DNA of 60,501 bases, counting the filler. It is 5 parts of 5 records of this genome, joined end to end, with 100 filler letters (N's around TTAATTAATTAA, not from the genome) between each part and the next. Parts side by side here need not be neighbours in the genome. Positions count along the whole stretch, not along the records: positions 55,355 to 60,501 come from DRR723986_64021; 4 more parts are not named here. One strand, given 5' to 3'. The notes under the pieces were generated by a model. That model worked only from the letters and a program-made list of their open reading frames with translations. It was not told the DNA's origin and ran no database searches. Of the stretch, positions 23,454-60,501 are shown piece by piece. Made by a program: the position numbers and the translations under genes. Each line of letters begins with the position of its first letter. Within the stretch, counting starts at the first letter, position 1.

Positions 23454-23473
23454 ATTGTTATCTTCAAATCTGA

Positions 23474-26959: not shown

Positions 26960-26962
26960 TTT

Positions 26963-34980: not shown

Positions 34981-35080
34981 NNNNNNNNNNNNNNNNNNNN
35001 NNNNNNNNNNNNNNNNNNNNNNNNTTAATTAATTAANNNNNNNNNNNNNNNNNNNNNNNNNNNNNNNNNNNNNNNNNNNN
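34981..35080. other. Artificial contig spacer
   Basis: N44-TTAATTAATTAA-N44. Confidence 0.98.
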
Positions 35081-35081
35081 T

Positions 35082-36371: not shown

Positions 36372-36399
36372 TTGATAAATAAGACTAAAAATAATTAAG

Positions 36400-38532: not shown

Positions 38533-38536
38533 TTGT

Positions 38537-38569
38537 AAACCGTCTCAACTTGTTTGAGGCGGTTTTTTT
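38537..38569 (+). terminator. Rho-independent terminator
   Basis: AAACCGTCTCAA / TTGAGGCGGTTT stem followed by a T run. Confidence 0.85.
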
Positions 38570-38583
38570 CTTATCTTTTCGTT

Positions 38584-38952
38584 ATGAAAAGGAACTACAC
38601 TCTATTTTTTGCTTTAGTCTTAGGCTTATTGACAATTGGCGCAAATAGCACTTACAGCCACAAAGGAATCATGACTGTTGAAGCTAAACTAATTGAGAAA
38701 CCCTTCATTAATAAGGTTGGAAAAGAAGGAAGTTTTAAGGACCTCTACCTAGAAATAAAACAACATACTTACTTCATTAAGTGGAGCGCATCCAAAGTGA
38801 CCAAAGCAGAAATGATGCCTTTTCTTAATCGTAAGGTTAAGGTGAAAATTGATATTCGAAATGGTTTGTGGGATACTGACGACCCAAATATTCAAAGCCG
38901 AGTCGGTGATTATGTAGCAATTTTGAAACTTTTCGACTCCAAAAGTGAGTAA
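38584..38952 (+). CDS. Hypothetical exported protein
   Basis: ATG 38584 gives a signal peptide; the track's TTG 38554 lies inside the terminator. Confidence 0.7.
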   Translation: MKRNYTLFFALVLGLLTIGANSTYSHKGIMTVEAKLIEKPFINKVGKEGSFKDLYLEIKQHTYFIKWSASKVTKAEMMPFLNRKVKVKIDIRNGLWDTDDPNIQSRVGDYVAILKLFDSKSE

Positions 38953-39012
38953 TTCACCGAATTGTTAACAAAAAGGTAACCACATCTTTAGGCTGACATA
39001 GCAAAAATGTCG

Positions 39013-39020
39013 TAAATTTG
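39013..39020 (+). promoter_or_regulatory. Bacteroidota -7 promoter element
   Basis: TAAATTTG in the intergenic region upstream of 39064. Confidence 0.5.
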
Positions 39021-39063
39021 GTAGGCTGTCGAAGAAACACTACTCGAATTGCCTTTTAAATAA

Positions 39064-40776: not shown

Positions 40777-40868
40777 GTTTTTATCTTTCACCCTTATTAA
40801 CTATTTTGATGAATTCGGTGTTAATAAATATAAAGCCTATTCTCCTTTGAGCTAGCACACTAAAACCT

Positions 40869-40876
40869 TATCTTTG
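40869..40876 (+). promoter_or_regulatory. Bacteroidota -7 promoter element abutting the dnaB start
   Basis: TATCTTTG with only 5 nt before ATG 40882. Confidence 0.55.
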
Positions 40877-40881
40877 TAAGG

Positions 40882-43663: not shown

Positions 43664-43681
43664 CTTCTTACGAATCCCCTA

Positions 43682-45985
43682 ATGAAAAATTACTACTTAA
43701 ACTCTACTCTACTATTATTTTCTCTATTTCTTTTCATTAATCCTACGGTTAATGCACAGAATGTTGGATGGAATAACATGAGAGCCAACGGACAAATGAA
43801 AAAAGGAAATGCTGCAAAAGCAATTTATTTTTTCAATAAATCTTTGTCAAAAGACAGTACTAACTACAAGGCAAATATTGGATTAGGTAAAACCTATCTG
43901 TATTCTTACCAGCTGTATGATTCATCTACCATTTATCTAGAGCGCGGTTTAAGGCATCAAACTAAAGACACAAACTATATAAATTATTATGACCTTGCGA
44001 ATTCTTTACGACTTTCTCACAGGCCAAATGAAGCTATTCAATTCTACGAATTATTCAAACAAAATTACGTTGAAGCAAAGAAATTGGATAATAAAGAGTT
44101 GAATGATGAAATTGAGAAGAACATCACATATTGTAGAAACTCTGCGGTCAAATTAGCTAATCCTCAAACCGAAATCACAGTCCAAAACATGGACTTTTAC
44201 ATCAATTCAAGAGAGAGTGAATACACACCTGTCTATGTTGAATCTGATAGCTCTTTGATGTATAATGCTCGATACAAAGACTTGAAGAACGAGAAACAAT
44301 TTGCAGATTATCAATACATGGAAAATGTCTACTACTTTGATTTAGAAGAGTTAAGCGCAGCCACTTTTGATGAATCGGTAAAACAGGCTAGTCACAGAGC
44401 CGTTGTTGGGAAAAACTTCGGTTCAGACACAATTATGCTGTTTTATCAAAATAAGTTATGGATAGGATCAACTTTTGAAAAACGATTGAACGAACAAAAA
44501 CCATTGCCTGAAAACCTATCAAATTTTTACTTTCAACCTCATGGAGTTTTTACAAGAGATAATGAGAGCTTTTATTTTTCAGCCATGAAAACTGAAGAAG
44601 ACAATCTAGACATCTACGAAAGTCATAAAAATGAGGATGGTACATGGAGTGATCCAGTAAAAGTGAAAGGACAAATCAACACTGAATTCAGAGAAGACAG
44701 TCCTTTTTTAACAGCTGATGGGCAAACCATGTACTTTTCATCAAAAGGTCATAATTCATCAGGAGGATACGATATTTATAAAAGTCAATTAATAGATGGG
44801 GAATGGACTAAGCCCGAATCACTCCCGTATCCGATTAATTCAGCCGGAGATGATATTTATTACACTTTAGATGAATCAGAAAAATTTGGCTACCTATCTT
44901 CAAATAGAGTTGGAGGATTTGGTTTAATGGACATTTATACGGTTTTATTAACACCTGTACCTACGTTTGATTGTCCTCAATTTGAAAACCCTGAACTATT
45001 AGTTCATTTAGACATTTCTGAAAGTGTAGACACTTCTTCAGTAGATGTAATTTACACTTGGCATTTTGAAGACGGCACCAAAGTTATTGGTTTAGAACAA
45101 GAAAAACTCTTTCATTCTCCCGGGACACACAAAATTAAAATCGACATTACTGATATAAAAGGCGGTCAAACAGAACTTGCTGAAATCATTGAAGAAGTTG
45201 TTATTGACAGTGTTGATTATATTGGCTTTAAGAACAACAAAAATTATATTTTAGGCGACACCGCTCATCTTGATGCTTCAGTAAGCTACCTTGAAGGTGT
45301 CTCATTCACGAATTATTTTTGGGCCATAGACGATTCAATATTAAGCATTGATCAAACCACCCTCGACATTCCACTTACCAAGACTGGAGAGGTTGTAGTT
45401 TCGCTTCAAGTTTATGGTAAACAAGGAATCGATCAAGTTTCGTTCTGTAGAACTGATACTTTGTTTGTTCGCGACATTAATGTATCTGATTCAACTAACG
45501 GATCTTCGGATACTACATTGGTTGTCAACAATAACAACAATGGGAATAATTCAAACTCAGACTCCACAGCGTTCATCAATTCCGACTCATTAAATGTATT
45601 AATTGATAACAATACGGTTATTGAAAATTCAGATATTAAACCAATTTACTTTGCATTTGACAAAGCTGATCTGTCATCTAAATCAGTAGCAGAATTAGAT
45701 AAAATTGTGAGCTATTTAAGTAAATATCCGTCCGTAAAACTAATCATATCGGGACACACTGACGCCATGGGAAGTGAAGAGTACAACAAGCTTCTTTCGC
45801 AAAAACGAATCCATTCAACTATTGCTTATTTAAATTCAAGAGGTATAAACTCAAGCAGAATAGTCAAAACAATCAGCCATGGAGAAAGTAAACCGGCAAT
45901 GCCAAATACTAAACCGGATGGTTCAGATAATTTCAACGGACGTAAATTAAACAGAAGGGTAGAATTTACCGTTATTAAAAAGTAA
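43682..45985 (+). CDS. TPR-PD40-PKD-OmpA domain periplasmic protein (PorE-like architecture)
   Basis: Signal peptide, TPRs, PD40 (EDSPFLTADGQTMYFSS), PKD-like (YTWHFEDG), OmpA C-domain (IYFAFDK, GHTD, LSQKR, NRRVEF). Confidence 0.9.
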   Translation: MKNYYLNSTLLLFSLFLFINPTVNAQNVGWNNMRANGQMKKGNAAKAIYFFNKSLSKDSTNYKANIGLGKTYLYSYQLYDSSTIYLERGLRHQTKDTNYINYYDLANSLRLSHRPNEAIQFYELFKQNYVEAKKLDNKELNDEIEKNITYCRNSAVKLANPQTEITVQNMDFYINSRESEYTPVYVESDSSLMYNARYKDLKNEKQFADYQYMENVYYFDLEELSAATFDESVKQASHRAVVGKNFGSDTIMLFYQNKLWIGSTFEKRLNEQKPLPENLSNFYFQPHGVFTRDNESFYFSAMKTEEDNLDIYESHKNEDGTWSDPVKVKGQINTEFREDSPFLTADGQTMYFSSKGHNSSGGYDIYKSQLIDGEWTKPESLPYPINSAGDDIYYTLDESEKFGYLSSNRVGGFGLMDIYTVLLTPVPTFDCPQFENPELLVHLDISESVDTSSVDVIYTWHFEDGTKVIGLEQEKLFHSPGTHKIKIDITDIKGGQTELAEIIEEVVIDSVDYIGFKNNKNYILGDTAHLDASVSYLEGVSFTNYFWAIDDSILSIDQTTLDIPLTKTGEVVVSLQVYGKQGIDQVSFCRTDTLFVRDINVSDSTNGSSDTTLVVNNNNNGNNSNSDSTAFINSDSLNVLIDNNTVIENSDIKPIYFAFDKADLSSKSVAELDKIVSYLSKYPSVKLIISGHTDAMGSEEYNKLLSQKRIHSTIAYLNSRGINSSRIVKTISHGESKPAMPNTKPDGSDNFNGRKLNRRVEFTVIKK

Positions 45986-45988
45986 GCT

Positions 45989-46942
45989 ATGAAAACAATT
46001 CTTGTCGCAACACTTTGTTTATTTGGCTTAATCAGCACGAGTCAAATCGTACCATCTTCCTACGAGAATATCGAATTTTTGATGACTTTCGGAAAAGGCG
46101 CGGATGCTAAATGGGGAGATGACGATCACGTTCAAACCCACTTTTTTGTCATTCCTAAATCGGAAACCTCCCCGGTTTATATTAGAATTTTCGATCCAGG
46201 TACAGGAGGGAAATTCGACACAAAAAACGGCAATTTTAATACTTCTTGCTCATTCACTTTATACGCTGGAAACGGGGTGCATTCTCAAAAAGCATCACGT
46301 CAAATAAATCCTGCGGCTGGCTATGATAAAGGAAAAGTAGTATACTCCAAAACTTTTGGAAATTCAACTGATCTGGATGGTAAATGGGTTAGCTTTGGCC
46401 CCATCAATCCCTCCGAAGGTGAATACTCTTCAGAATTTGGTGGTTATATTTTCAAAATGATTTGCAAAGGTTTAAATGGTGATGACGGAAACGCTTATAA
46501 ATATGCTTTGAGTTACAGCAAAACTGAAAACCTTTTTGTTGAGAACGGAAATATTTTCACATATGAAATGAGTTTCAAACTAAAAAAGGACCTCAATGCT
46601 ACGGCTCATGTATATCCATTTATCAAAGAAAATATAGTTTCAATTACACAATGGAACTTTGATGCTGATGCAGATCTTGAAATGAGAATCACTTCAATTG
46701 CTCGTAAACTCGTTCCTGCTGCGGCTAGCTTAGACGGCAAATGGAGTTCTACAAAATTCATGATAAAACCAAAAGAAGTAAACACTTCTGTTGATATCCA
46801 AATGATTAAACAATCAGCCTCTGAAAATGACATGGTGATCTATATCCTGAATCAGTTTAATGAAGCCATGCCTCTATTTTCAGTGCCTATTGGAGGAAAG
46901 CCGAAATACAAGTATGAAGTAAAAGTTAAAACACGGTTTTAA
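45989..46942 (+). CDS. Hypothetical exported protein
   Basis: Signal peptide, beta-rich 317-aa ORF tightly coupled to both neighbours; WGDDDH and IRIFDP motifs. Confidence 0.75.
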   Translation: MKTILVATLCLFGLISTSQIVPSSYENIEFLMTFGKGADAKWGDDDHVQTHFFVIPKSETSPVYIRIFDPGTGGKFDTKNGNFNTSCSFTLYAGNGVHSQKASRQINPAAGYDKGKVVYSKTFGNSTDLDGKWVSFGPINPSEGEYSSEFGGYIFKMICKGLNGDDGNAYKYALSYSKTENLFVENGNIFTYEMSFKLKKDLNATAHVYPFIKENIVSITQWNFDADADLEMRITSIARKLVPAAASLDGKWSSTKFMIKPKEVNTSVDIQMIKQSASENDMVIYILNQFNEAMPLFSVPIGGKPKYKYEVKVKTRF

Positions 46943-49452
46943 TGAGGATTACTTTTGCCCTCCTCTTGTTAACTAGTCTAAGCGGAATTGCACAGCAATA
47001 CAACTTTAAGCATTTCAATGAAATAGAGCTGAAGTCTGACTTTTTCTATGACATTGATCAAAACAGTCACGGTGAACTATATATAGCATCATCAAAAGGA
47101 CTGCTTATTTATAATGGAATAGGATTTCAACAATTAACCGACCGCGATTCTTTGATAGACGAATTCATATCAAACATCTATATTGATCGTAAAGATCACG
47201 TTTGGATAGCCTATTACAAAGGTGGTCTTTCGAAAATTGAAAACGGTACAATATCTCATTATTGCAGCGACTGTTATGTCGAAGAGATTTTTGAATTAAG
47301 CGAGCACGAAACGATATTCACCACTGACCAAAACGCTTTTAAAATAGTGGGTAATAAAATGGCACCGATATCGGAGTATCAAAATTTAAAAACGGTTCAA
47401 AATCTACCTGAAAACAAACAAATTCATTTGACCAAAGACAATCGACTGTTATTCATTGATGATCCCAACACTTCGCAACTCATTTTAGATAGTGTGGATT
47501 TATTTTCTTGCGCTAATAACAATTACCCATTAACTGTCAAAAGAAAAAACATATTATTCGTTTACAATGAAGGTGTGCAAGGGTTACCCAAATTAGAAAT
47601 GACTATGACGGTTGAAGAATTGGGAATCCATTCTGACATCACCACAATTCTGATGAGAAGCAAAAAAGTAGTCATTGGCACAGAGTCTGAAGGACTGTAT
47701 GAAATTTATTTGAACCCAGGATATCAATCTTATTCTATTCAACATTTTTCGAAAAAAAACGGTTTGGGTATTGAAAAAGTAAACTGTCTTTTTGTTGATA
47801 ATGAACGCAATCTTTGGGTTGGGTCTTACGGAGATGGGATAACAGTTCTCCCCAAAAAAAGAACCTCCATTCACGCCTTAACGAATGATAATAGAAAAAA
47901 CAAAATATTGGACATTGAATACCACCGTGGTGAACTTTACATAGCTTCAGAAAACAGTCTAAGATTCATGAAAAAAGATGCAGACAATCGTAAATTCCAA
48001 TTATTTGAAAATAGAACTATAACTGATTTGCATTCTTACGGTGATACGTTATGGATAGGCACATCTATGGGTTTATACTTTATGAATGAAAAGGGTATCC
48101 AAAAGTTTAAATTCGAGAGCTTAAGAGAAAAACCAGGATATATAAATAAAATACAGAGTCATGACGGCTCGGTATACCTAGGAACAAATACCGGACTTTT
48201 CATTCACAACCTTAAAACAAATGAATCATTGAAAATCACAACGAATGATGGCCTGGCTCATAACGTTGTCGAAAACTTCATTATTGACGACTCACGAACT
48301 TTTTGGTTTGATTCACCGAACAGCCCATTTTACTCCTATCAAAATGGAGAATTTGAATATTATAAAAACGTAGACGGATTTGAAAGCTTTAACATTACGG
48401 ATATCAGACAAGTTGCAAACGGTGAAATTTGGTTCGGGACAGCTGGGGATGGGATTTTCGTCTATAATGATGGAAACTTCAAGCAAATTTCATCTGATCA
48501 AAAGCTATTTGATAATTACATCTATTTTTTAGAAGAATCAAGAGATGGTAAAGTTATAGCTGGTCATAAATCCGGTATTTCAGTAATTCAAAATAATAAA
48601 GATCAAGTTTCAATAACAGATTTAGGTGTAATCAATGACCTTGAATATATTATTCAGAACTCTTCTTATTTATCGGCCAGTGACTATTTATGGGTCGGCA
48701 CATCATATGGTGCAGCAAGAATTCCTAGAATTTCTGAATTTGACAAAAAATTCATCCCGCCGTTATCCATCAACTCTGTTTCCATCAATCAAATCGATTA
48801 TTCAGCAGACAGTATAATCAGTTTACCTTATGACAATTATTACGTAGAAATCAATTTTGGAGCAGTATACCTGTCAAATGCTTCATCAATTAAATACAAA
48901 TATATCTTAGAGGGATTTGATAAAGATTGGTCTACCATAGGTTACAATGAAAATGTTGCTCGATACCAGTCTTTGCTAGACGGCGAGTACACATTTAGAG
49001 TAAAACTAATTCTTGACAACCGCGAATTAGACAACGAACAAGTATTCTCTTTCACTGTTGAAAAACCATACTGGAAAAAAACGAGCTTTTATATCTGGAT
49101 GGGTGTGCTAGTAATCGTTCTTTTCTTTATCTCATTATGGATTGCTAATAGAAGAAACCGTAGAATCCGTGTCAAACTGACAAAGGAAGTAAAAGAAAGA
49201 ACGACCGACTTAGTAAAGAAGAATTCCGAAATCACTTCAATCAATCATGAATTGGAAGCAATTTCAGAGCAATATTTACAAGCTAAAAACACTGCTGAAT
49301 ATAAAGCAGGACAAATAGAAGAAAGTATTACCTACGCAAAGCATATTCAAAAAGCCCTTCTTCGTAAAAAAGAATATGTGGAATGGATGTCTGCGTTTTC
49401 TGAGTTCTTTTTAATATTTAAACCGAAAGATGTTGTAAGCGGAGATTTTTAT
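46942..49452 (+). CDS. Beta-propeller/Y_Y_Y membrane sensor with SpoIIE/PP2C domain, 3'-partial
   Basis: Reg_prop repeats (LWVGSYGDG, IWFGTAGDG), YKYILEGFD..W Y_Y_Y domain, TM, coiled coil; ends at KPKDVVSGDFY. Confidence 0.88.
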
Positions 49453-49552
49453 NNNNNNNNNNNNNNNNNNNNNNNNNNNNNNNNNNNNNNNNNNNNTTAA
49501 TTAATTAANNNNNNNNNNNNNNNNNNNNNNNNNNNNNNNNNNNNNNNNNNNN
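49453..49552. other. Artificial contig spacer
   Basis: N44-TTAATTAATTAA-N44. Confidence 0.98.
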
Positions 49553-51814
49553 ATCGCCGGCATCCAGGTTCGTATATGTAGCCTGGCGTGCACTGCCGGC
49601 ATCAACCCATTCGCGGTCCCAGCCTTCCAACTTCCAGGCATAGCGATTGCGGCCAGGATTAACAAAGTCGAGCGCCACACATTCCAGTGAAAAGACCGAC
49701 TCACGCCACGAAAACTGAATTCGATCCAGTTCCCCAACAACAGCCGGCAGATTAAATCCACCCTGCCCTTCAGGAAAAACCGGTACAGACTTGTTAAACA
49801 GTTTTAAGTCACTGAGAATTACCGGTGGAAGATGTTGATTGTCGCGCAATTCATGCGGCCGTACAATGTTAATCCCGCCAGGACCACCAAATGCGAGCGA
49901 ACCATTCAGCAGGCGCGCATGTGCATTTAGATTAAACTCTGAGTTCTGCGCATTGTCATCCATGCCGTATATCCGGCTGCGACCGCTTGACAAATCATAG
50001 TGTATCAGGCCGCTGTTACTCGCTATCCAGAGCTTTTTGTCTTCGTCCTCTTCAATGCTGTACAGCACCCTGCTGGGCAAGTTTAAGCCCAGCGAAACCG
50101 GACGCGGCGCCGTACTCTCGGCGGGATCTGAAATTACGAACAGACCATTTGTGGCCGCCACCCAAATCCTGGCGTCACTGGACTGAAACAGACTCAAAAC
50201 CGTTTGCGGGAAGTTATTACTGCTCTGCGTACCACAGTGTTCAAAGCGGCCGCTAGCCTGATCGAATATCTGCAATCCCTTGGTTGTCCCAACCCAGATT
50301 CGACCATCCTGGTCTTCCAGGAGCGCAAGCACATAATCGCTCGCAATTGTGGCTGGATCATCGGGATTGTGCTTGTTAAACTTTGTGTCTTCGGCGGCGC
50401 CTGTTCGCAGCATCAGACCCGCATGCGCCACTCCCGCCATTAAATCGCCTGCTTTGGTGACGAGCATGCAGACTACCATGCTGTTCACGCTTTGGCTTTC
50501 GACTATTTCGTTCACAAGCGGATCGTAAATGGCGTATCCGCAATCATATCCAAGAATGATACGGCCCAGTTTGTCAACTGCTAAGGACATGATGTCATTT
50601 TGCAGCTCTGTCGTTTCCGACGTCAAACCGTAGCACTTAAATTCACTCTGCACCGGCTCAAGCGAATACAAACCACCAGCGGATCCGATCCACAGTATGC
50701 CCTGGCCATCCACTGCCAGGCTGTTAACATATGCGGATTCGGCGCCCAGGCTTGTTAAAACAAACGAGTCGTACAACTCCAGTGTTTTGCGTTCCAGATG
50801 TGCGACGGCAACTCCGGCACGCGAAGCACACCACAGTGAACCGGCACTGTCAATTAAACAAAACTGCAAGAACTCGTGTGGCAAGCCCTTGGGATCGTCT
50901 GCATGGCTGCGGTATATCTCACATTGTGACGGATCGTCCCCTTTGATTCGCGCCAGCCCCTTGCTGAATGTGATCCAGACGTCACCGCGATAGTCAATCG
51001 CCAAGCCGGCAAAGTGCGCCTTCTCGGCGCACAGCTCAGTGCCGAGAAACTGCTCATCAAGGGTCAGATCATGCAGGTTTAGAATGAACAGTCGTCCATT
51101 AACACTCAAGATCCAGACAGAATTCCTGTCGCGAAACTTCAGGCTTGTAGCCACCTGTTGCTCGGAACCGACCGGGCCCGGCGGGTATTCAAGAGTTTTG
51201 AGTTCCTGGCTTTGTAAGTCGAATAGAAGCAGGCCGCGAACTGAACCGATCAGAATCGCATTCTGCTGTGCAAGCGGCAGCAGCGAATACACCAGACTAA
51301 GTTCAGCAGAAAAAGACAATTTGCGATAGCTCCCCGCCTGAACGTCAACACGCACCAGCCCCTGCCCACAGCCCAGCCAAAGTACACCGTTGGGAAACTC
51401 ACACATCGTCAGAATGTATAACTCGTTCCACTCTGATGCTGAACTTTTGACCGTACCGGCCGCTCTGGTTTCCGGAGTGGCCTCAAAAGGATGAAATTCG
51501 TCGCGCAAGCGATCATAGCGGTTTAGCCCGCGATCATAGGTTCCGGCCCACAATGTTCCGGCCTGATCTTCAAACAGGGAGTGTACGTCTCCACTCGTTA
51601 GACTCCGCGAAGCCTTCTCCGGGCTGTGATTGTAGACTTTGAAGCCAGTGCCGTCGTAGCGATTTAGCCCGTCTTCGGTCCCGATCCAGATATATCCGCG
51701 CCTGTCCTGCAGGAGGCAGATCACACCATTCTGCGAAAGCCCATCCCGCATCGTCAGATGTTCAAAACGCAGGCTCGGTTTGGCACTTTTTGTTTGCACA
51801 GCTGTAGTTTCCAT
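49553..51814 (-). CDS. Two-component regulator propeller / Y_Y_Y sensor protein, 3'-partial
   Basis: FEHLT..DGLSQN, QD..GYIWIGTEDGLNRYDG repeats, YAWKLEGWD.EW, YTNL; output domain is cut off by the spacer. Confidence 0.9.
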
Positions 51815-51970
51815 ACTCCTAATTTCGCAATTGTATAGCGAGTAACAATGGGTACGCTGAATCCGCTAATCGCAGACTACCATGATTCTACGTTGATCGC
51901 AACAATTGGCGCGCTTATATTATGTGCCATACTACCTGCCCGGAATTCCACAAAAAGTGTGGTCCATCTT

Positions 51971-53485
51971 ATGATACGTCTTTTGCTTCTTGTTTTAACC
52001 TTTTCGAGCCTGGCCACATACTTACATGCCCGCACCTTACTTGTCGGCACGGAAGGTGAATTCAGCACTATCGAATCCGCAGCGGCGGCGGCGCAGCCTG
52101 GTGACAGTATTTTGGTGAGTGCGGGTGTGTGGGGTGGTGGCAACTTTCTGATTGATCTGCAGGGACGCGCTGATGCCTGGATACATTTGATAGGCGAAGA
52201 TACGGATGAAGCCGTAATAATTCGGGGTGGCTCAGAGGCTTTGCACATTACTGATCCTGCCTTTCTGTACATCGCGGGATTTACCTTTGAGCAGCAAACG
52301 GCCAATGGCGTTAATATCGACGATGGCGGAACCTATGCGACTCCGGCACATGATGTTCTGATTGAAGATTGCAAATTCGGGAACATCGATGCAATCGGCA
52401 ATAATGACCTACTTAAACTTTCCGGCCTCAATAATTTTACAATCCGCAATTGTGAGTTCTTCGAAGGAGCCGCAGGTGGGTCGGGAATTGATATGGTCGG
52501 TTGCCACGAAGGAATCATTGAAGACAACACGTTTCTATTTTTGGGCGCCAGTGGAATACAAGCCAAGGGCGGCACGCAATTTATCAGCATTCGCCGCAAC
52601 ACATTTTTCCGCGCCGGTGCGCGTGCACTTAACCTTGGCGGCAGCACTGGTCTGCAATTCTTTCGTCCGCTCAACGCACCCTTTGAAGCCGCCGATCTTT
52701 TTGTCTACTCCAATGTGTTCATCGAGGGAGAAGCTGCAGTAGCCTTCGTTGGTTCCGTCAGAGTTCACGTCGTTAACAATTCATTCTACCATCCGCAAAA
52801 ATGGGTGGCACGCATCCTGCAGGAAACCGTGGATCCAGACCGTTTTCTGTCCTGCGGCGACAATGTATTTCGCAACAACCTGGTTGAAGTCAACGCCCAG
52901 CTCTCGCGTCCGTTTAACGTCGGACCGGATACGCGCCCGGAGTCATTCACTATCGACCACAATTTGTGGTATGACGCCAATGCGCCATGGAGCTACGATC
53001 GCGATTTTCCGGTCCCGCAGATCGGATCCATCTACGATCAAAATCCCATGATTCAGAGTCCACTTGATGGTGACTTTACGTTGCTGCCCGGCAGCCCGGC
53101 CATTGGGCGTGGACTGCCCGTTGAGCTTCCGGAACTTGACTTTCAAGGCCGGCAGTTTGGATTACCGCGTTCAATCGGTGCTATGGAATTTGACGATGCT
53201 GTCGCAACAAACGTAGCAGAAATGGACGCGGTACAAGCTCTGCAACTCTTTCCCAACCCGGCGCATGCAAGGCTAACAATCACACTTCCCCACAAGGTTG
53301 CAGTTGACGCCAAGGTAGAGCTGACCGTGACAACACTCGACGGCAAGTCACAAACATTGGACTATCGATTGTTAGACAACATTACGCTGGAAACTACAAC
53401 ACACAACTTGCCACAGGGCGTATACCTCCTCCAGCTTGCGGTCGGAAATTTTCACACGGCCGAACTCTTTTTTAAAAATGACTAA
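51971..53485 (+). CDS. Right-handed parallel beta-helix protein with T9SS-type C-terminal domain
   Basis: ATG 51971 gives a signal peptide; AQPGD.I...G.W start, PbH1-like repeats, LLPGSPAIG.G, D..G..R..GA.E; LFPNP...LPQGVYLL CTD. Confidence 0.85.
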   Translation: MIRLLLLVLTFSSLATYLHARTLLVGTEGEFSTIESAAAAAQPGDSILVSAGVWGGGNFLIDLQGRADAWIHLIGEDTDEAVIIRGGSEALHITDPAFLYIAGFTFEQQTANGVNIDDGGTYATPAHDVLIEDCKFGNIDAIGNNDLLKLSGLNNFTIRNCEFFEGAAGGSGIDMVGCHEGIIEDNTFLFLGASGIQAKGGTQFISIRRNTFFRAGARALNLGGSTGLQFFRPLNAPFEAADLFVYSNVFIEGEAAVAFVGSVRVHVVNNSFYHPQKWVARILQETVDPDRFLSCGDNVFRNNLVEVNAQLSRPFNVGPDTRPESFTIDHNLWYDANAPWSYDRDFPVPQIGSIYDQNPMIQSPLDGDFTLLPGSPAIGRGLPVELPELDFQGRQFGLPRSIGAMEFDDAVATNVAEMDAVQALQLFPNPAHARLTITLPHKVAVDAKVELTVTTLDGKSQTLDYRLLDNITLETTTHNLPQGVYLLQLAVGNFHTAELFFKND

Positions 53486-53825
53486 TTCGCATTTGTTTTT
53501 TAATTCACATTTTTCAATATTCTGACGTCGCACCGCCAAAGAACAATCCGATGTTCTTACCGACAGCGTCGATTATATCGGCAATGTATCATTTACAAAA
53601 TGTCTACTGTTCGGCATTTGTAAGTGTCTCAGGGTCTGTCAGGTCGATTAAACCCGCGCCTGGCGGACGATTAACGTCACTACATTCTGACACTGCTTTT
53701 CAACTTCCGGCTCTGACCGGGACGCATAGACTGTTTCTAATTTGCTGTTAAACGCGCAACCGACTGCCACCGCCGTTAAACCGCTTAACCATATGTTAAT
53801 ATCCATTACTTTTCAGGAGTCCATT

Positions 53826-54197
53826 ATGCAACGCATAGTAGGAATGCTTAGCGCTATTTGTTTGACCTTTGTTTTGATGGCAATGTTACCGGCACAGGCC
53901 GACGCCGGATGCCACAATGGCTGGAAGTTTGTTAACGATGGCCCATGCGCTATTAAAATCACAGTCAACACTGATGGCCCGTGCCTCCAGGCACAGAATG
54001 TGTTTACGATTCCTGCTAATTCGACGCTCACGGTGTCTGAAGTCTGCTGTATAACAGCTGTAAAAGTCGAACTCGGTGGCCCATGTTTTGGTTCACAAAT
54101 CTTCCTGCCGGTACGTTGTATTACAGGGCAGCAGTGTGACTTGCCTGCGCCGTTTACGTCGGTTGGGGTCCGCGAGTGTTTGGTCAGAATCAATTAA
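53826..54197 (+). CDS. Small secreted Cys-rich protein, paralog 1 (123 aa)
   Basis: AGGAG at 53815 before ATG 53826; signal peptide ending ADA; homologous to the next ORF. Confidence 0.8.
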   Translation: MQRIVGMLSAICLTFVLMAMLPAQADAGCHNGWKFVNDGPCAIKITVNTDGPCLQAQNVFTIPANSTLTVSEVCCITAVKVELGGPCFGSQIFLPVRCITGQQCDLPAPFTSVGVRECLVRIN

Positions 54198-54314
54198 ACA
54201 CCTGCACCATGTAATTAACATAAATATTCGGCGAACAGGGTTCAGTTGTTCTTTTGTGAGCATTCCCTGCGCTGCCATCGCCGACTTTTTCAAACTGTTC
54301 AAGGAAAGTTCAAG

Positions 54315-54680
54315 ATGAAGACACATAAGTTTGCACTGTTCCTGTGTGCCGTACTTGGACTCTTCAGTCTCGCAGCCCAGATCGAAGCGGCAGACTGCAC
54401 GTTTGGTTTAAAGTTTGTTAATGACGGCCCCTGCACTGTACGCTTCACGGCCACAACAAATAACGGTTGTGCTATATCAAGCACCGTGGTTCCGCCGGGC
54501 TGGAGTGCTTTTGTCCAGGGCAGCAACTGCTGTTTTGAAGCTGTAGAGGTGGAAATCATTGGTGACTGTCAGGGCATTCCTGGTGGCACAACCTACTATA
54601 CGGAGGTAGGTTTTGGCATCGTATTACCGGGTCCGTACAGCGCACTTTCGCTGGACGAGTGTGAAGCACGCATTTTTTAA
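54315..54680 (+). CDS. Small secreted Cys-rich protein, paralog 2 (121 aa)
   Basis: AAGGA at 54301 before ATG 54315; signal peptide; shares KFVNDGPC and the Cys pattern with paralog 1. Confidence 0.8.
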   Translation: MKTHKFALFLCAVLGLFSLAAQIEAADCTFGLKFVNDGPCTVRFTATTNNGCAISSTVVPPGWSAFVQGSNCCFEAVEVEIIGDCQGIPGGTTYYTEVGFGIVLPGPYSALSLDECEARIF

Positions 54681-54850
54681 ACACTTGTGATTGGCGGACT
54701 GTAAAACTGTTGCGCGCGCATTAACATTCTGCCCTAAGAACTCAGTTGCTAAGGTGCGGACTAAAAGCCTTGCACCTTACCACTCCGTGACAAACAACAT
54801 TGCTATTAAAGCCTGAGATGCACCCAAGCCTTTGGCGCGGGGCAGCTCAA

Positions 54851-54890
54851 AGTGTTCTGGGGCGTTCTGGAGCGTTTTGGGGCGATCTGG
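54851..54890. repeat. Degenerate 10-nt tandem repeat, 4 units
   Basis: agtgttctgg ggcgttctgg agcgttttgg ggcgatctgg. Confidence 0.75.
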
Positions 54891-55254
54891 AGTAGAATTG
54901 GCGGAACAGGGGCAGAAAAAGATTTTTGAGCGCTTCGCCGCGGCATGCGATGCCTGCCATTTCGGCTTGCTTTTTACTCTTGTTAGTTAGCGGGTGTGAA
55001 GTTAGAGTCTATTGATTATTTAAGTTTTTTGGCGCGCAGCCCTAATCCTGACAGTGTTGAGAGCCTTTTGGCTGGGAAATTCGCGGTGACGGTCGGGAGT
55101 TCAAAAGCCGCGGAGTGAGCAACGCCAGGTTTTTGGGAGGTCAGAAATTGGGTAGTATGAAGTTAGTTATAGCTGGTAGCGGCAGATTCGCGGGTTGGCT
55201 GGTAGTTTGGGGAATGAGGAGGGATTAACGGGCAGTGTGAACTGTTTAACGGGA

Positions 55255-55354
55255 NNNNNNNNNNNNNNNNNNNNNNNNNNNNNNNNNNNNNNNNNNNNTT
55301 AATTAATTAANNNNNNNNNNNNNNNNNNNNNNNNNNNNNNNNNNNNNNNNNNNN
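55255..55354. other. Artificial contig spacer
   Basis: N44-TTAATTAATTAA-N44. Confidence 0.98.
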
Positions 55355-55408
55355 TAGAGAGGGGAAAGCGGAGGTGCGTATATATAAGTGTTGTGTACAA
55401 TTTGAAAA

Positions 55409-56038
55409 ATGAGATTTAACAAACCAGCATATCCAACAGTTCATTTTAGCGAAGAAATTTGGGTTAATTGTCCAAAGTGCTCTGAACCTGCTTTGGTAAA
55501 AACCGAACTACCAAAATATACGATACTTTTTCCTTGGGGACACAAATCAATCTGTAGCTGCAGTCATTGTGGATTCCAAGAAACGAACGAGAGTAATTGG
55601 TCGGGGTTTGTTCAGGGGTTTATTAACCGAGCATGCGGAAATTGTGGAAGTGGAATATCTTACACCACGGAACCGACAAAAGAACCATATGAAACATCAG
55701 AAATTACATGTGACGTATGCAAGGCAACAAGAGAGTATGAGATTAAATGGTATCGCTACCGAAATGACAAACCTACAGACCCTTATTTTGGGTTTGATTT
55801 ATTTCTTCAAACCAGTATAAAAGATAATGTACTTTGGTTGTACAATATTGACCATTTAGACTATCTAAAAGAATATGTTGAAGCTAAGCTTAGGGAAGAT
55901 GATGGAAGACACAAATACTCTATGATAACAAATTTACCTCAATGGGTTAAGTCAAGTAAGAATCGTGAAGTGATTGTCAAAAAGGTTAATAAGTTGAGGC
56001 ACGAATTAGAAAAGAAAACTGTACACAACAACACCTAA
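55409..56038 (+). CDS. Hypothetical zinc-ribbon protein (cassette 1)
   Basis: Four CxxC motifs (CPKC, CSHC, CGNC, CDVC); DPYFG..L.LQ...LW.YN..HL and LPQWVK motifs. Confidence 0.8.
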   Translation: MRFNKPAYPTVHFSEEIWVNCPKCSEPALVKTELPKYTILFPWGHKSICSCSHCGFQETNESNWSGFVQGFINRACGNCGSGISYTTEPTKEPYETSEITCDVCKATREYEIKWYRYRNDKPTDPYFGFDLFLQTSIKDNVLWLYNIDHLDYLKEYVEAKLREDDGRHKYSMITNLPQWVKSSKNREVIVKKVNKLRHELEKKTVHNNT

Positions 56039-56083
56039 GAAAACATGCCCTTCGGGACACGTTTCTTAGCCAAACGTAGCTGC
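56023..56083 (+). other. attC-like recombination site (about 60 bp)
   Basis: ACACAAC, 5 nt, CTAAGAAA...cTTCGg loop...TTTCTTAG, 6 nt, GTAGCTG. Confidence 0.7.
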
Positions 56084-56108
56084 AACCTAAAACATCAAAA
56101 ACACAATA

Positions 56109-57148
56109 ATGAAATTTCTTCTGTCAACATTCACTTTACTTCTGTTTTTTTCTTGTGACGGACAGCAACACAAAACTGTTGAATTAAAAGAACCTAAAGT
56201 TTATACGAGTGCTGACATTGTTACAAGCAATTTACTAGACAAAAATGGAAACCTATGGTTTGGAACATCAACCGAAGGACTTTAAAATATGACGGAAAAA
56301 CATTCACTAATATTAATGAAGAAAAAGGTCTTTGTTCTAATCAAATTTGGAGCATTATTGAAGATGACAAAGGGATAATCTGGCTGGCAACAAATAAAGG
56401 ATTGTGCAAATACAATGGCAAGGTGTTTACACAAATTTCACTTCCCTATGTTGAAACAAGTAGCGAATGGTACAAAAACATTTACCCAACAGTCAACCCA
56501 AATCAAGCAAATTCAATAATTCAAGACAATATTGGAATATTTTGGATTGGAACTTCAGGTGGTGGTGCTTACAAATATGACGGAACAACATTTCAAAGCA
56601 TATTGGCTGACAAAGGCAGAAAATATGAAGACAGTCTTCATCACAATGTCATACAAAGCATTATACAGGACAAAAATGGAAACATTTGGTTTGCTTCAAT
56701 GAGTAATGGGGGACTTACAAAATACAATGGCGAAACATTCCAAGAGTTCAAAACGGAAAATGGATTAAGTGATAATATGGTTCGTTATCTCTATCAAGAC
56801 CAAGAAGGAAATATTTGGATAGGAACAAATGGAAATCGAAATAGTGGATTGGATAAGTTTGACGGAAAAGACTTTAGTAACTTTAATGAAAGTAATGGTT
56901 TGTGCAGTAATAATGTTGCCGTTATATTCCAAAGTTCAGACGGAATAATTTGGTTAGGTAGCGACAGAGAAGCTCTTTGCTATTTTGAAAATGGAAGTTT
57001 CAAATCTTTAGACAAATTATCAGGAATTTCGATAAGGACAATCATAGAAGATAAAGATGGAAATATTTGGTTCGGTGGCAGAAAAGGAAATTTGTGGAAA
57101 TATGACGGAGAGAAATTGACAGACCTAACCCAATGGAAAAATGAATAA
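56109..57148 (+). pseudogene. Frameshifted beta-propeller (Reg_prop) lipoprotein (cassette 2)
   Basis: ATG 56109, lipobox FFS-C, first repeat DKNGNLWFGTSTEGL, then TAA at 56283; repeats continue in the frame of track ORF 56255-57148. One missing base restores GLYKYDG. Confidence 0.8.
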
Positions 57149-57156
57149 AAGGCAGC

Positions 57157-57223
57157 AGCGAACAAGGTATGTGCATGGCTTCCTAACGTCAGCCACGACA
57201 CTATATACAAACCGTTGTTGTAG
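57157..57223 (+). other. attC-like recombination site
   Basis: AGCGAAC just after the stop, GTATGTGCATGGCT / AGCCACGACACTATATAC imperfect stem, then GTTGTTGTAG. Confidence 0.6.
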
Positions 57224-57247
57224 GGCATTTGCCAAAGACGTAACACT

Positions 57248-57505
57248 ATGATTACAGCAGAGAAAATAGAAATTTATCGAAAATACGGAGGAGATATTGA
57301 TGGTTTATCTCGAGGAGGTAAAAGCGAAGAAAAGGCATTGTTAGAAGATAAAGATTGGTGGTTAATTGATAGCATATTACAAGATTTAGAGATGATTAAC
57401 AAAGGACTATGTTCTTGGGACTTTTTAGCGCGATTTGAAAAATTATTGGAAGATAATTTTGACAGTGGAGCAAGAGAACTGATTTGTAGGAACAGTTTAT
57501 ATTAA
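57248..57505 (+). CDS. Hypothetical protein, 85 aa (cassette 3)
   Basis: ATG about 30 nt after the GTT core site; natural-looking helical sequence (IY.KY.GDIDG). Confidence 0.75.
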   Translation: MITAEKIEIYRKYGGDIDGLSRGGKSEEKALLEDKDWWLIDSILQDLEMINKGLCSWDFLARFEKLLEDNFDSGARELICRNSLY

Positions 57506-57596
57506 TAAATAACACTCCGAAACGCAAAGGATTGTTTAAAGTAAACAAGGAGGATTATGTGCTCAATGTTTATCGACTGATTGAGAAATTGGATAA

Positions 57597-57707
57597 ATGA
57601 AATATAAAAACTACAAATCAACCATTCACAATTTTGCACATTCGTTCATGAGCATTAATTATAAGAAAAGTAGTCGATTAGCAATTAATGTTCTGATTGA
57701 TCACTAG
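57597..57707 (+). pseudogene. Probable truncated gene remnant (36 codons)
   Basis: MKYKNYKSTIHNFAHSFMSINYKKSSRLAINVLIDH*, reading like a protein N-terminus cut short before the next attC-like site. Confidence 0.4.
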
Positions 57708-57741
57708 CTCGTGGAACAATAAGATTAAAATTGAAACATGG

Positions 57742-57923
57742 CTATAACATTTTCTAGGAATGAATAGGGAGGCTTCGGTCTGGATATTTTCGTGGGAATT
57801 ACAAAGTCCGCCACAATTTATAGATTTAAAACAAGAGGTGACTTTGAGCAGCTAAAAAGGTTAGTGAATTCTAATCTCCACTTATCAATAGCTCAGCGTT
57901 GGGAAATTTTAAGAACGTTGTAA
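57742..57923 (+). other. Long degenerate attC-like site
   Basis: CTATAAC at 57742; remnant arms CTAGGAATGAATAGGGAG / CTCCACTTATCAATAG; GTT cores at 57898 and 57917. Confidence 0.45.
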
Positions 57924-57946
57924 CCAATAATTCAATCAAATTCAAA

Positions 57947-58648
57947 GTGAATATATTTTCTTATCATTTAGTAAAGCTTCCATTTTTTGATGCGATAAAA
58001 TGTATATTCTCGAATCCTATTTCCAAGAACACCATAGGGCTGGTTCACTCAGAATGTATGACAACGATGACCTTAGGTTCTCCTATCTTTTCTACCTCTA
58101 GGGTTTTAATCGGGCAAGTCGCCATTTTCATACAGTGGGAAGATGAAATTGCACTCGAGAACTATTTAGATAAGGACAGTTTTGGTAGAATTCTAGCAAA
58201 AGGCTGGCACGTGCGGATGTCTTTTATCAGAGCATGGGGGAGAATCAGAGGATTTAAAATACCAGATAGTAGAACCAACTTGGAAACTACAAATTCTCCA
58301 GTGGTCGCTGTGACTTTGGCCCGAATGAAACCTTTTGCAGTCCCAAGATTTATTCATTGGGGAAGGCCAGTAGAAAAGCTGGTACGAGACCATCCAGGAA
58401 CCATACTTTCGTTAGCATCAGTGAAGTTTCCAAACACCGTCTCAACTTTTTCAATTTGGAAAACCGAAAAAGAAATGACAGATATGGTTCGTGGGCATAG
58501 TGCAGTTGAAAAACCTAAACGACATTCGGCTGCAATGGAAGAAAGAGAGAGGAAAGAATTTCATTTTGAGTTTGTGACACTAAGGTTTCGACCTATTTCT
58601 GAATTTGGTAAATGGAAAGGCCAATCGAATTTTATTTCCAGCACTTAA
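57947..58648 (+). CDS. Spheroidene monooxygenase (CrtA)/DUF3291-like dimeric alpha-beta barrel protein
   Basis: QWEDE.AL..Y, PVVAVTLAR, TFSIW....M, H..AM and F..LRFRP....G.W.G pattern. GTG 57947 is the likely start. Confidence 0.6.
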   Translation: MNIFSYHLVKLPFFDAIKCIFSNPISKNTIGLVHSECMTTMTLGSPIFSTSRVLIGQVAIFIQWEDEIALENYLDKDSFGRILAKGWHVRMSFIRAWGRIRGFKIPDSRTNLETTNSPVVAVTLARMKPFAVPRFIHWGRPVEKLVRDHPGTILSLASVKFPNTVSTFSIWKTEKEMTDMVRGHSAVEKPKRHSAAMEERERKEFHFEFVTLRFRPISEFGKWKGQSNFISST

Positions 58649-58663
58649 AGTATTCCAGGAAAA

Positions 58664-59524
58664 ATGGGAACAGCATCTAGCAAGCAGAGCGTACAGGATT
58701 GGGTTACTCAGCAATGGGTCATTCTTTTTGGAAAAAAAATTGATTTCATAGAGCATAAATGGCTTATGGGACCTTTTGGCAACACCAATGGGATCGGTAT
58801 AAAATTTATAAAGCAATTAGCAGAAAAAGAACATTTAACTATTGCTAAGGAGGAAAATGATAAAGGATTAATTCAATCAATAAAGCAACTCAATCTGACT
58901 AAAATTGAATTGCATTCGCTATCTGAAAATGTGATTGACTTTTATCAGAACACTTCGAATTACGACCTTCAATTAAGCGTAAAATGGAATCCATTTTTTA
59001 AAATATTCGGTATTTTGCTGCGGATCCTTTTCAGTAAAAGGATAGAACAATTAAATGTTCCCATTCAACGTGTTAAAGACTCCAAGGGATTGACAAGTGA
59101 AATAATCCAGCTGCTTGATCCTGTTACAAATGATGTTAAAAGGACAATTTGGTTAAGGACATTTAAATCAACAGGTCAAGTCGTTTACTCTGGTGTGTAT
59201 GAAATTTGTATCATGCCATCTGGAAAAGCATGTATAAAAGCGATTTTCCCACTGCCCAACGGAAATGCAACTGTGATTTTGTCTCCCAGAGTTGGAGGAA
59301 ATGGTGAGCTTATTTTAGAATCATCGGGGAAACAAATTGGTGATAGTGGATTTTACTTTTTGCTAAAGGATTCAAAAGGACACTTATGGACAAAATTTTT
59401 AAAATCATTTAAAGACAAACTTGTAGTAAGAAGTGTAAATGAAAGTATTTCTGCTACACAAACTCTGACTTTATGGGATATGAGAGTTTTAGAATTTGAA
59501 TACGAAATAAAGACCAAACACTAG
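58664..59524 (+). CDS. Hypothetical protein
   Basis: 286-aa ORF 15 nt after the previous gene; DWVTQQWV, FY..TS.Y, W.R, YSG.Y and FPLPNGNA motifs. Confidence 0.75.
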   Translation: MGTASSKQSVQDWVTQQWVILFGKKIDFIEHKWLMGPFGNTNGIGIKFIKQLAEKEHLTIAKEENDKGLIQSIKQLNLTKIELHSLSENVIDFYQNTSNYDLQLSVKWNPFFKIFGILLRILFSKRIEQLNVPIQRVKDSKGLTSEIIQLLDPVTNDVKRTIWLRTFKSTGQVVYSGVYEICIMPSGKACIKAIFPLPNGNATVILSPRVGGNGELILESSGKQIGDSGFYFLLKDSKGHLWTKFLKSFKDKLVVRSVNESISATQTLTLWDMRVLEFEYEIKTKH

Positions 59525-59570
59525 TAAATTAATACTGAAAACCAGAAGGTAAACTTAGCAAAGACAAACA

Positions 59571-60296
59571 ATGCCACCAATAAAGATGAGACACCTACTA
59601 TTATTGTTTTTTGTCCTGAACGTACAGGCGCATGCTTTTGGACAGCAATCTGACACAGTTTGGTTTAATAATAAATGGGAGCAGACTGAACGGGCAAACA
59701 AACACTACTACAGAGTGATTCAAAAGGATTCTGTTAATGGAAGAAAATTCATTGTACAGGATTTCTATCCTACTGGGCAATTGCAGATGAAAGGAAATTA
59801 TGTTTCTATTAATCCAGAAAAAAGAGATGGTGAATTTATTTGGTGGTTTCAGAATGGTAGCATTCAAAGAGAGGCATTCTATAAGAATGACACAATTGTT
59901 AAAATGACTGATTGGGATGAAAACGGAAAAATAGTACGCCAGCAAGAATACCTACGGACCGTAACATATCAGGATGGGGAGCCTATCTATGATTTAAAAT
60001 CAATTGACGTCGGTCCAGAGTTTCCTGGAGGCAATGCTGCTTTGTATGCTTTTATTTCTAAAAACTTGGAGTATCCAAAAGAGGCAGCAAAAAATGGGAT
60101 TACGGGGAAAGTAGTTGCCAAGTTTGTGATCGATCTAAAAGGAAAGGTTAAGAATCTAGAGATAATTCAAAGTGTTCATGAACTTTTGGATCAAGAGGCG
60201 TTAAGAGTGATGCGTTTAATGCCTAAATGGACGCCAGGAGAGCAAAATGGTAAAAAGGTGAACGTAATGCTCGCCCTGCCTATTAATTTTAATTAG
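59571..60296 (+). CDS. TonB C-terminal domain protein with MORN-like repeats
   Basis: Signal peptide; PEFPGG...L..FI.KNL.YP, G.V...FVID..G, LD.EALRV...MPKWTPG, LPINF. Confidence 0.9.
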   Translation: MPPIKMRHLLLLFFVLNVQAHAFGQQSDTVWFNNKWEQTERANKHYYRVIQKDSVNGRKFIVQDFYPTGQLQMKGNYVSINPEKRDGEFIWWFQNGSIQREAFYKNDTIVKMTDWDENGKIVRQQEYLRTVTYQDGEPIYDLKSIDVGPEFPGGNAALYAFISKNLEYPKEAAKNGITGKVVAKFVIDLKGKVKNLEIIQSVHELLDQEALRVMRLMPKWTPGEQNGKKVNVMLALPINFN

Positions 60297-60387
60297 CGAA
60301 AAATATGCTGACAAATCACTAAAAACGAAGGGAAGTCCGGAATTTCAAACCTTCCAAGCTTTGCAAATTGCTAAAACTAAGTTCTAT

Positions 60388-60501
60388 TTATAGTACGGGA
60401 TTAGCCTCATCACTAGCTTTGTAATTTATTTTGAAGAGTGCCAAGAAGTCATTTACTACGATCTTCGGAACGTAGCGCTTGACACCTTCTTTGTCTTCGT
60501 A
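60388..60501 (-). CDS. ssb: Single-stranded DNA-binding protein, C-terminal fragment (5'-partial)
   Basis: Minus strand reads YEDKEGVKRYVPKIVVNDFLAL...*, matching the SSB Y.DK.G..RY..EIV motif; not in the ORF track. Confidence 0.7.
   Translation of the reverse strand, partial: YEDKEGVKRYVPKIVVNDFLALFKINYKASDEANPVL

Follow-up and report, generated by a model that had tools for sequence, protein, structure and literature searches.

Integrons are the classic bacterial device for the capture and shuffling of genes, and are defined by the integrase IntI together with its special domain. They are regarded as rare or absent in the Bacteroidota. Passages of PMC4889954 and PMC9668308 define intI by an additional domain near patch III (PF00589 + intI_Cterm), and PMC4889954 describes the AAC/GTT triplet as the only strongly conserved part of attC sites. 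A passage of PMC9668308 calls the IntI-specific domain necessary, while one in PMC8138268 has the domain insertion as "not fully conserved" in an integron-like subgroup, yet essential. For the Bacteroidetes, the IntegronFinder 2.0 report (PMC9024848) states that only In0 had been found earlier and adds a single complete integron, that of Salinibacter ruber; other passages list the Bacteroidota among the phyla with integrons (PMC8618304), place them among clades in which earlier work had found no integrons (bioRxiv 2024.07.02.601686), and report no integron found by IntegronFinder in a Tenacibaculum genome (PMC10013915). The locus considered here, positions 55355-57505 of a 60.5-kb window (the whole stretch of DNA that was analyzed), is very likely a fragment of a chromosomal integron-type gene-cassette array, the recombinase of which would, from its relatives, be Xer-like. 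The array type is an under-described Bacteroidota variant; since its recombinase falls outside the definition of IntI, the term "integron-like" is to be preferred over "integron". A full-text literature search returned no description of such arrays, its coverage being thin for subscription journals and its scope excluding supplements.

The window comprises five contigs (1-21961, 22062-34980, 35081-49452, 49553-55254 and 55355-60501) separated by four N44-TTAATTAATTAA-N44 linkers at 21962-22061, 34981-35080, 49453-49552 and 55255-55354. Since these linkers are artificial, gene adjacency across them is meaningless. The array forms the 5′ edge of contig 5, from a marine member of the Bacteroidota (GC 0.358), where the core of cassette 1 lies 35 nt past the N linker; because it abuts that linker, no 5′ extension of the contig is possible inside the window. 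Contigs 1-4 contain the usual Bacteroidota housekeeping genes (alternative complex III, cytochrome oxidase, DnaB, and sorting tails of the type IX secretion system, T9SS). The source is, judging by the cassette 1 gene, a close relative of Crocinitomix algicola (Bacteroidota, Flavobacteriales), because that gene is 98% identical at the protein level and 96.6% at the DNA level to its counterpart in C. algicola 0182. The principal features, where ORF stands for open reading frame, are:

55390-55399, plus strand: R′-type core GTTGTGTACA (exact string), the 5′ boundary of cassette 1 and the point at which homology starts
55390-56078, plus strand: cassette 1, flanked by an inverted repeat
55409-56038, plus strand: cassette 1 gene (ORF call), encoding a Cys-rich protein of 209 residues with four CxxC motifs
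56021-56083, plus strand: site 1 (attC-like), degenerate, reading R″ ACACAAC, spacer, L″ CTAAGAAA, loop, L′ TTTCTTAG, CCAAAC, GT-AGC
56077-57216, plus strand: cassette 2, encoding a Reg_prop β-propeller protein (1.2e-32) with a lipoprotein-type signal
57155-57222, plus strand: site 2 (attC-like), with AAC (57161-57163) and GTT (57217-57219) intact, the best match of both covariance models described below
57217-57505, plus strand: start of cassette 3, GTTGTAGGGC, and an ORF of 85 residues (57248-57505; ORF call)

The ends of cassette 1 are inverted copies of one another. The exact reverse complement of GTTGTGTACA, namely TGTACACAAC, is found at 56020-56029, and a repeat search extends the pair to 55389-55403 / 56016-56030 with 14 of 15 positions complementary, a stronger relationship than the exact inverted ends claimed in the original prediction, which had read this region as an integron-like cassette array. 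The strings it quoted are all present to within one base: GTAGCTGC, the core which starts cassette 2, lies at 56077-56084, not 56076, and GCAGCGAAC at 57155-57163. By a rough estimate a lone 10-nt inverted repeat should occur by chance a few times in 5 kb, but that of cassette 1 is judged to be well beyond chance because of its placement at the gene ends and, above all, because of the comparative data across genomes. The three ORFs are, as had been stated, short, unrelated and co-oriented, beginning 19, 32 and 31 nt past their cores. No Pfam, NCBIfam or PADLOC family was found for the proteins of cassette 1 and ORF3. The former has 62 homologues across Crocinitomicaceae, Flavobacteriaceae, Vicingaceae, Saprospiraceae, Cytophagales and Bacteroidales, with identities of 75-85% in Olleya, Vicingaceae, Flagellimonas, Roseivirga and Saprospiraceae. 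More distantly, proteins from Streptomyces, Amycolatopsis, Acidobacteriota and other groups (loci L026-L080) are related to its C-terminal half (approximately residues 94-200).

A blastn comparison of contig 5 with 80 loci, fetched by a genome scan with ORF1, reveals homology over cassette 1 only. Its first position is 55390 in L001 (C. algicola), L004 (Flagellimonas), L005 and L006, and its last is 56030 in L002-L005 and L015; in all, eight other Bacteroidota genomes have homology that begins at this GTT, stops at this AAC, or does both. In the window and in L001-L004 the gene is preceded by GTTGTGTACAAT, 5′ of whose G the sequences are unrelated, and CTGTACACAAC closes the cassette, beyond which divergence resumes. 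The expectation that homology in other genomes would break at the GTT/AAC ends is thereby confirmed at base-level junctions. Over 55390-56114 the copy in C. algicola has 96.6% identity, and its neighbors differ on both sides. Upstream, C. algicola possesses a different element, an ORF-less repeat, to which 55355-55389 of the window is unrelated (the approximately 16 nt of this stretch 5′ of the GTT resemble the flank in L003); downstream, identity collapses past GT(T)AGC and a PLD-like gene replaces the propeller gene. This amounts to a reshuffling of cassettes among close strains in which the GTT cores form the joints. The cassettes are discrete units joined at AAC/GTT, and their sites are chimeric.

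Inverted repeats matching at 14 of 15 positions at both ends of a gene could also delimit a small transposon or a unit resembling a miniature inverted-repeat transposable element (MITE), moved by a transposase, and insertion sequences (IS91, IS110, IS1182) are present in some arrays. The terminal repeats, however, differ from cassette to cassette and define no family; the units abut head to tail and share a single site; the L″/L′ hairpin and the next GTT invariably come after the 3′ repeat; and no target-site duplication was seen at the base-level junctions examined. Transposition of cassette 1 is therefore highly improbable, and an integron-type unit fits these junctions better.

The 5′ extension denied by the window is provided by the C. 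algicola contig, where approximately 18 more short co-oriented ORFs with sites lie upstream of the cassette 1 copy. Similar arrays are found in Flagellimonas (L004), a Bacteroidales metagenome-assembled genome (MAG; L016), Catalimonadaceae (L015), Olleya (L002), Carboxylicivirga (L017) and Lishizhenia (L008). The density of sites is about one per kb in L004, L016, L015 and L002 versus four in the 55 kb of window contigs 1-4. These densities come from a strict pairing detector which missed both window sites; its strand comparison was discarded as the detector is strand-symmetric, and the density alone was used. The cassette 1 gene has sites, as detected by model R1 (below), on both sides in L002, L015, L016 and L017 and on one side in L001, L003, L004 and L014.

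Reading the junctions gives a common site architecture: nnnnnnAAC, approximately 3 unpaired nt, L″, loop, L′, 5-6 unpaired nt, and GTT(G/A)nnnnn. The sites measure 44-190 nt depending on the loop, with a common size class of 120-125 nt, and L″ often begins GTATA. In integrons, extrahelical bases of the L box set strand choice; here no constant bulge is seen within the first 6-11 pairs of that box, the asymmetry resides in the spacers (3 vs 5-6 nt), and mismatches turn up deeper in the stem. The cores had been called non-canonical, which is overstated, as the AAC/GTT triplet and the R at position 4 are kept.

A further characteristic of these arrays, which we term the chain rule, is that a cassette opens with 9-10 nt that are the reverse complement of the R″ belonging to the site at its 3′ end. 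Pairs obeying it include GTTGTAGCGC/GCGCTACAAC in L004, GTTGGCAGC/GCTGCCAAC in L016 and GTTGTGGTG/CACCACAAC in L001. Among 58 confident intergenic sites from 24 loci, the R′ 9-mer recurs as its exact reverse complement 100-3500 nt downstream in 22, compared to one of 58 upstream and 20 of 1130 with scrambled 6-mers. By locus, the rule holds for six of seven sites in L016 and five of six in L004, and in the plasmid locus L082, which lies outside all models, for three of five exactly plus one with a single mismatch. An earlier form of this test, on consecutive detected sites, was replaced because false positives inside genes contaminated both sites and control. The directional nature of the rule is the footprint expected of circular excision and re-insertion at G↓TT (the arrow marking the crossover), as in integrons.

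Hairpins behind genes may equally be transcription terminators or generic intergenic repeats, in which case the ends of cassette 1 would be its own untranslated regions and nothing would be mobile. The hairpin at 56035-56069 does begin at the stop codon of ORF1, a 10-nt inverted repeat could arise by chance, and terminators in the Bacteroidota often lack a T run. Terminators nevertheless leave unexplained the directional chain rule (22/58 vs 1/58), the invariant AAC/GTT frame with its unpaired spacers, the exchange of neighbors exactly at GTT in a 96.6%-identical strain, and the occurrence of the same gene in unrelated arrays of several families. We regard this proposal as most improbable, and the cassette reading as the one which accounts for the pattern.

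Two covariance models were built from the sites of other genomes. R1 comprises 30 sites from seven relatives with no window sequence among its seeds; R2 comprises 17 short sites from nine loci and excludes both window sequence and the C. algicola orthologue of site 1. Seed pairing amounts to 84-90% versus 25-39% in slid controls, with many double changes, figures which are partly circular given that the seeds were selected by pairing. Custom models of this kind had been proposed as a check, and they recover both window sites. When R1 was run on both strands of the 60.5 kb, its top two matches were 57155-57222 (13.9 bits) and 56021-56083 (13.8 bits, E 0.62). R2, applied likewise to the whole window, places site 2 at 22.7 bits (E 0.006), the next match scoring 10.6 bits. 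The two sites are on the same strand, 1.1 kb apart. The C. algicola orthologue of site 1 possesses an intact GTTAGC and scores 22.3 bits under R1; the L″/L′ boxes of site 1 are identical to those of L016 8801-8933, from the Bacteroidales MAG, and the center of site 2 is homologous to the Flagellimonas site L004 9558-9629. On 25 loci R1 gives 73 matches at E<=1, of which 43 are non-seeds and 72 lie on the cassette strand; R2 gives 30 of 32 on that strand across 28 loci. A conserved gene order without breakpoints or similar sites elsewhere, the picture named as speaking against a cassette array, is not what the relatives present. The hairpin at 56035-56069 has a bottom-strand z of -2.4, with three of 200 shuffles folding as well. 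An energy scan for AAC...GTT segments was dropped as it was biased to long segments.

No tyrosine recombinase was found in any of the five window contigs (38 ORFs scanned), in agreement with the statement that the recombinase lies outside the window. In relatives, such an enzyme does head the arrays, in two chromosomal and three plasmid loci. The two chromosomal enzymes (L004 7305-8417 and L016 706-1857) stood out among 78 integrase-sized ORFs from 15 loci. Both are situated at the array head on the cassette strand, score 206-210 bits with the "XerA / integron integrase" model (cutoff 220), and match the "integron integrase" model TIGR02249 in two pieces at 190-196 bits (cutoff 265). They come from different orders and are 37% identical over their full length, including approximately 100 extra N-terminal residues for which a Pfam scan gave no family match. 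Among solved structures they match archaeal XerA and a XerC-like protein best, both of which align in one piece. Vibrio IntI4 was aligned in two pieces, with 22 residues of the single protein opposite 68 of IntI4, and in the profile of the 22-member family 19 positions stand opposite 62 IntI4 residues (180-241), from which it follows that the IntI-specific domain is absent family-wide. The catalytic residues R, K, H-x-x-R, H and Y are invariant in the 22 members. The family is large in the Flavobacteriaceae, where its members mostly carry generic names, sometimes "integron integrase" and once, in Zobellia, "Integron-related Integrase"; the last label suggests that annotators had noticed the enzyme.

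Three Bacteroidota plasmid loci with full-length relatives of the enzyme, from Chryseobacterium, Rufibacter and Persicobacter (L081-L083), served as an independent test set. R1 gives 14 matches in these; every one is 3′ of the recombinase gene and 13 share its strand, and the 12 kb upstream contain none. A full-length enzyme is thus followed directly by an array on the same strand in all five loci (L004, L016, L081, L082 and L083), the recombinase gene being co-oriented with the cassettes, not divergent from them as intI, with its neighboring attI and promoter, usually is in integrons. The first crossover point lies 34-132 nt past the recombinase stop, and its cassette obeys the chain rule. 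The sequence ATATAAACAA followed at the crossover by GTTGG is common to L004, a Flagellimonas chromosome, and L081, a Chryseobacterium plasmid.

It could be argued that the window holds an ordinary integron fragment upon which a canonical IntI acts from elsewhere in the genome, the Xer-like enzyme being a bystander or having some other function. No recombinase is within reach of the arrays in the window, in C. algicola (L001) and in Olleya (L002); passages of PMC8138268 and PMC9668308 describe the IntI domain as essential; and integrons are listed for the Bacteroidota, with the complete one of Salinibacter ruber, in the relevant parts of PMC9024848 and PMC8618304. On the other hand, none of the 78 integrase-sized ORFs attains the integron-integrase cutoff (a search of array loci, not of whole genomes), the Xer-like gene is directly followed by a rule-abiding crossover point in five of five loci, and the L004 and L016 enzymes retain their full-length similarity across orders. 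We consider this alternative unlikely and favor an array worked by the Xer-like enzyme.

Several observations weigh against the latter interpretation. There is no recombinase within 10 kb upstream in C. algicola, nor before the Olleya array; since the enzyme is missing near these arrays and that of the window, its link to them rests on five loci from other genera. The pairing of cassette ends that had been predicted holds at 10 of 10 positions for cassette 1, while the cassette 2 pair is weakly complementary (a GCTGC/GCAGC core, approximately 7/9 with a gap) and the start of cassette 3 has no reverse complement downstream (<=2 mismatches, ending AAC), its far boundary not being found; the chain rule is accordingly complete, partial and absent in the three cassettes. 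Hairpins follow both AAC ends, as claimed, yet the second (57161-57219, site 2) is no better folded than shuffled sequence (z approximately -0.15). Site 1 lacks a full GTT and is at noise level under R2 (8.6 bits), and the R1 scores of both sites are marginal (E approximately 0.6, the next match, elsewhere, reaching 12.6 bits). The seeds of R1 and R2 were chosen by a detector which demands pairing, making pairing and covariation counts partly circular and the E-values rough. Lastly, recombination itself is deduced from a footprint in the sequence.

The copy in the window looks partly decayed or affected by sequencing errors, because site 1 is short of one T in GTT, gene 2 is frameshifted and cassette 3 is without a recognizable 3′ site. 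Gene 2 is split into 56109-56285 and 56255-57148 by a frameshift in a T3/A4 run (56280-56290), and site 1 reads GT-A where C. algicola has GTTA (56076-56079). Both are single-base losses in short homopolymers which could be sequencing errors or real decay.

The following features border the three cassettes:

55355-55389, plus strand: weak candidate for the 3′ remnant (L′ half + spacer) of a preceding site, cut by the contig edge
57806-57906, plus strand: weak candidate for a decayed third site, with R″ CCACAAT and R′ GTTGGGA (8.9 bits with R1)
57899-60296, plus strand: three co-oriented genes of 249, 286 and 241 residues, the last with MORN_2 + TonB_C (ORF call, family scan)

R1 detected no truncated site in the 35 nt at the contig edge (55355-55389). 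A third boundary had been implied near 57917-57930; this is not supported, the best R1 match there being the 57806-57906 candidate, which is not significant (E 0.33 in a 3.3-kb search). No R1 match above noise was found in 57899-60296, and these genes may be either a flank of the array or a multi-gene unit. ORF3, ORF5 and ORF6 have no relatives among the fetched loci, and the first two genes of 57899-60296 are likewise without homologues there. Elsewhere in the window, the contig at 49553-55254 has a GC of 0.508 vs 0.36-0.40 in the other four and could be of foreign origin or wrongly binned; among its genes is one for a Reg_prop/Y_Y_Y protein.

The proposed mechanism can be outlined as follows. 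Each cassette would consist of a promoterless gene and an imperfect palindromic site, R″(..AAC)-spacer-L″-loop-L′-spacer-R′(GTT..). It would be excised as a circle and re-inserted by crossover at the conserved G↓TT; for cassette 1 the predicted circular junction is a 3′ site closed by G joined to TTGTGTACA. The catalyst would be the tyrosine recombinase encoded at the array head on the cassette strand, as in the relatives, and the same enzyme may also serve enzyme-less arrays such as that of the window. By analogy, the site may be recognized as a folded single strand, and the N-terminal extension of the enzyme is the obvious candidate for replacing the IntI domain in this recognition.

The C. 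algicola array shows what chromosomal integrons typically carry: Cass2, annotated "integron-associated effector binding protein", a toxin-antitoxin cassette of two genes, and a GNAT protein. Its Cass2 gene and a single cassette combining a HigB/Gp49-like toxin and the matching antidote are found at L001 1993-2487 and 5301-5885. In L004 a 364-nt ORF-less repeat follows nearly every cassette (nine full copies and one partial; 8550-8913 and nine more places within 9621-20415). It begins GTTGGAGCAC, stops just 5′ of the next GTTG and is highly structured on both strands (z -5.4 and -6.3). The ORF-less repeat of C. algicola (approximately 145-190 nt; L001 3073-3186, 5078-5204, 7143-7279 and 9840-9984) begins GTTAAACAACC and ends TTTATTTGAYC before the next GTTG; all four copies are directly 5′ of cassettes, and it might carry a promoter. 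Rfam gave nothing for either repeat, even at E<=1. Two elements lie antisense to the cassettes inside arrays, group II intron domains at L016 11596-12090 (minus strand) and a reverse transcriptase/maturase gene at L081 18744-20060 (minus strand). Both bring to mind the group IIC-attC introns known from classical integrons.

In L084 (NZ_CP041297.1; 6055-8076) a gene for a truncated version of such a recombinase is situated 190 nt upstream of tet(X3) and co-oriented with it. It is 51% identical to residues 140-371 of the array enzyme and occurs in 50 Acinetobacter plasmid records. A GTTATGTGCC core is found 18 nt before the start codon, and a hairpin without GTT follows the stop; R1 with filters off detected no site at this locus (best 8.5 bits). 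The arrangement is only suggestive of tet(X3) having left the Bacteroidota from such a platform; it hints that clinically relevant genes may have done so.

Beyond the window, there is an even chance that these arrays constitute a separate and widespread Bacteroidota lineage of integron-type capture platforms, in which a Xer-like enzyme with an N-terminal extension replacing the IntI domain is co-oriented with its cassettes, residing on chromosomes and plasmids of Flavobacteriales, Cytophagales and Bacteroidales with cassette exchange across orders. Such a lineage, if real, would mean that cassette capture was invented independently, or else that an early stage between Xer and IntI has survived. 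Were a large domain-less recombinase family of marine and host-associated Bacteroidota to run arrays, current integron finders would miss a whole reservoir of mobile genes, the indispensability of the IntI domain for the recognition of folded sites could be tested on a natural counter-example, and the origin of integrons from Xer-like enzymes would be opened to experiment. On the cassette reading, the genes at 55409-57505 are accessory, recently shuffled cargo and not core genome.

In terms of existing categories, IntegronFinder would call the window fragment a CALIN (an attC site cluster that has no integron-integrase) because no recombinase is nearby; there are two sites in a row, the least that this class requires, and no recombinase in the contig, as assessed with our own models and with one site degenerate. 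The attC architecture is complete in site 2 and lacks only one T of GTT in site 1. An IntI with the specific domain, as a strict integron possesses, was found neither in the window nor in the related arrays. Nor do the arrays resemble Xer dimer resolution, in which XerC/D or XerA acts on a single dif at the terminus and there are no cassettes, as the enzyme heads arrays of many hairpins, also on plasmids.

The dif modules of Acinetobacter plasmids possess short, double-stranded, 28-nt dif-like sites in alternating orientation. The Bacteroidota arrays share with them discrete gene modules moved by Xer-type recombinases, but differ in their 44-190-nt hairpin sites, AAC/GTT ends and chain rule. 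In Treponema and some other integrons the integrase is encoded on the cassette strand, and these enzymes carry the IntI domain; the array recombinase is likewise co-oriented with its cassettes and differs by the absence of that domain. Compared to Vibrio cholerae IntI4 (PDB 2a3v), both are simple Xer/IntI tyrosine recombinases with the catalytic set kept, and the array enzyme obtains similar bit scores with the integron-integrase and XerA models, whereas it is without the IntI-specific domain and has approximately 100 extra N-terminal residues. The archaeal integrons, as portrayed in passages of PMC9668308, present the same arrays of short ORFs and folded attC sites in a clade thought to be integron-free; according to these passages archaeal IntIs keep the IntI-specific domain, which the Bacteroidota array enzyme does not. 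The closest likeness is to sedentary chromosomal integrons and CALIN, as described in parts of PMC4889954 and PMC9024848. Common to both are short, co-oriented, promoterless genes with imperfect palindromic sites; AAC/GTT triplets, R and L boxes, unpaired spacers, a variable loop and chimeric sites; and kinship of sites within an array, arrays that break assemblies, and a cargo of toxin-antitoxin, GNAT, Cass2 and unknown proteins. The Bacteroidota arrays are set apart by spacers of 3 nt (5′) and 5-6 nt (3′), an L box which usually starts GTATA, R-box complementarity over 9-10 nt, and a recombinase without the IntI domain encoded on the cassette strand.

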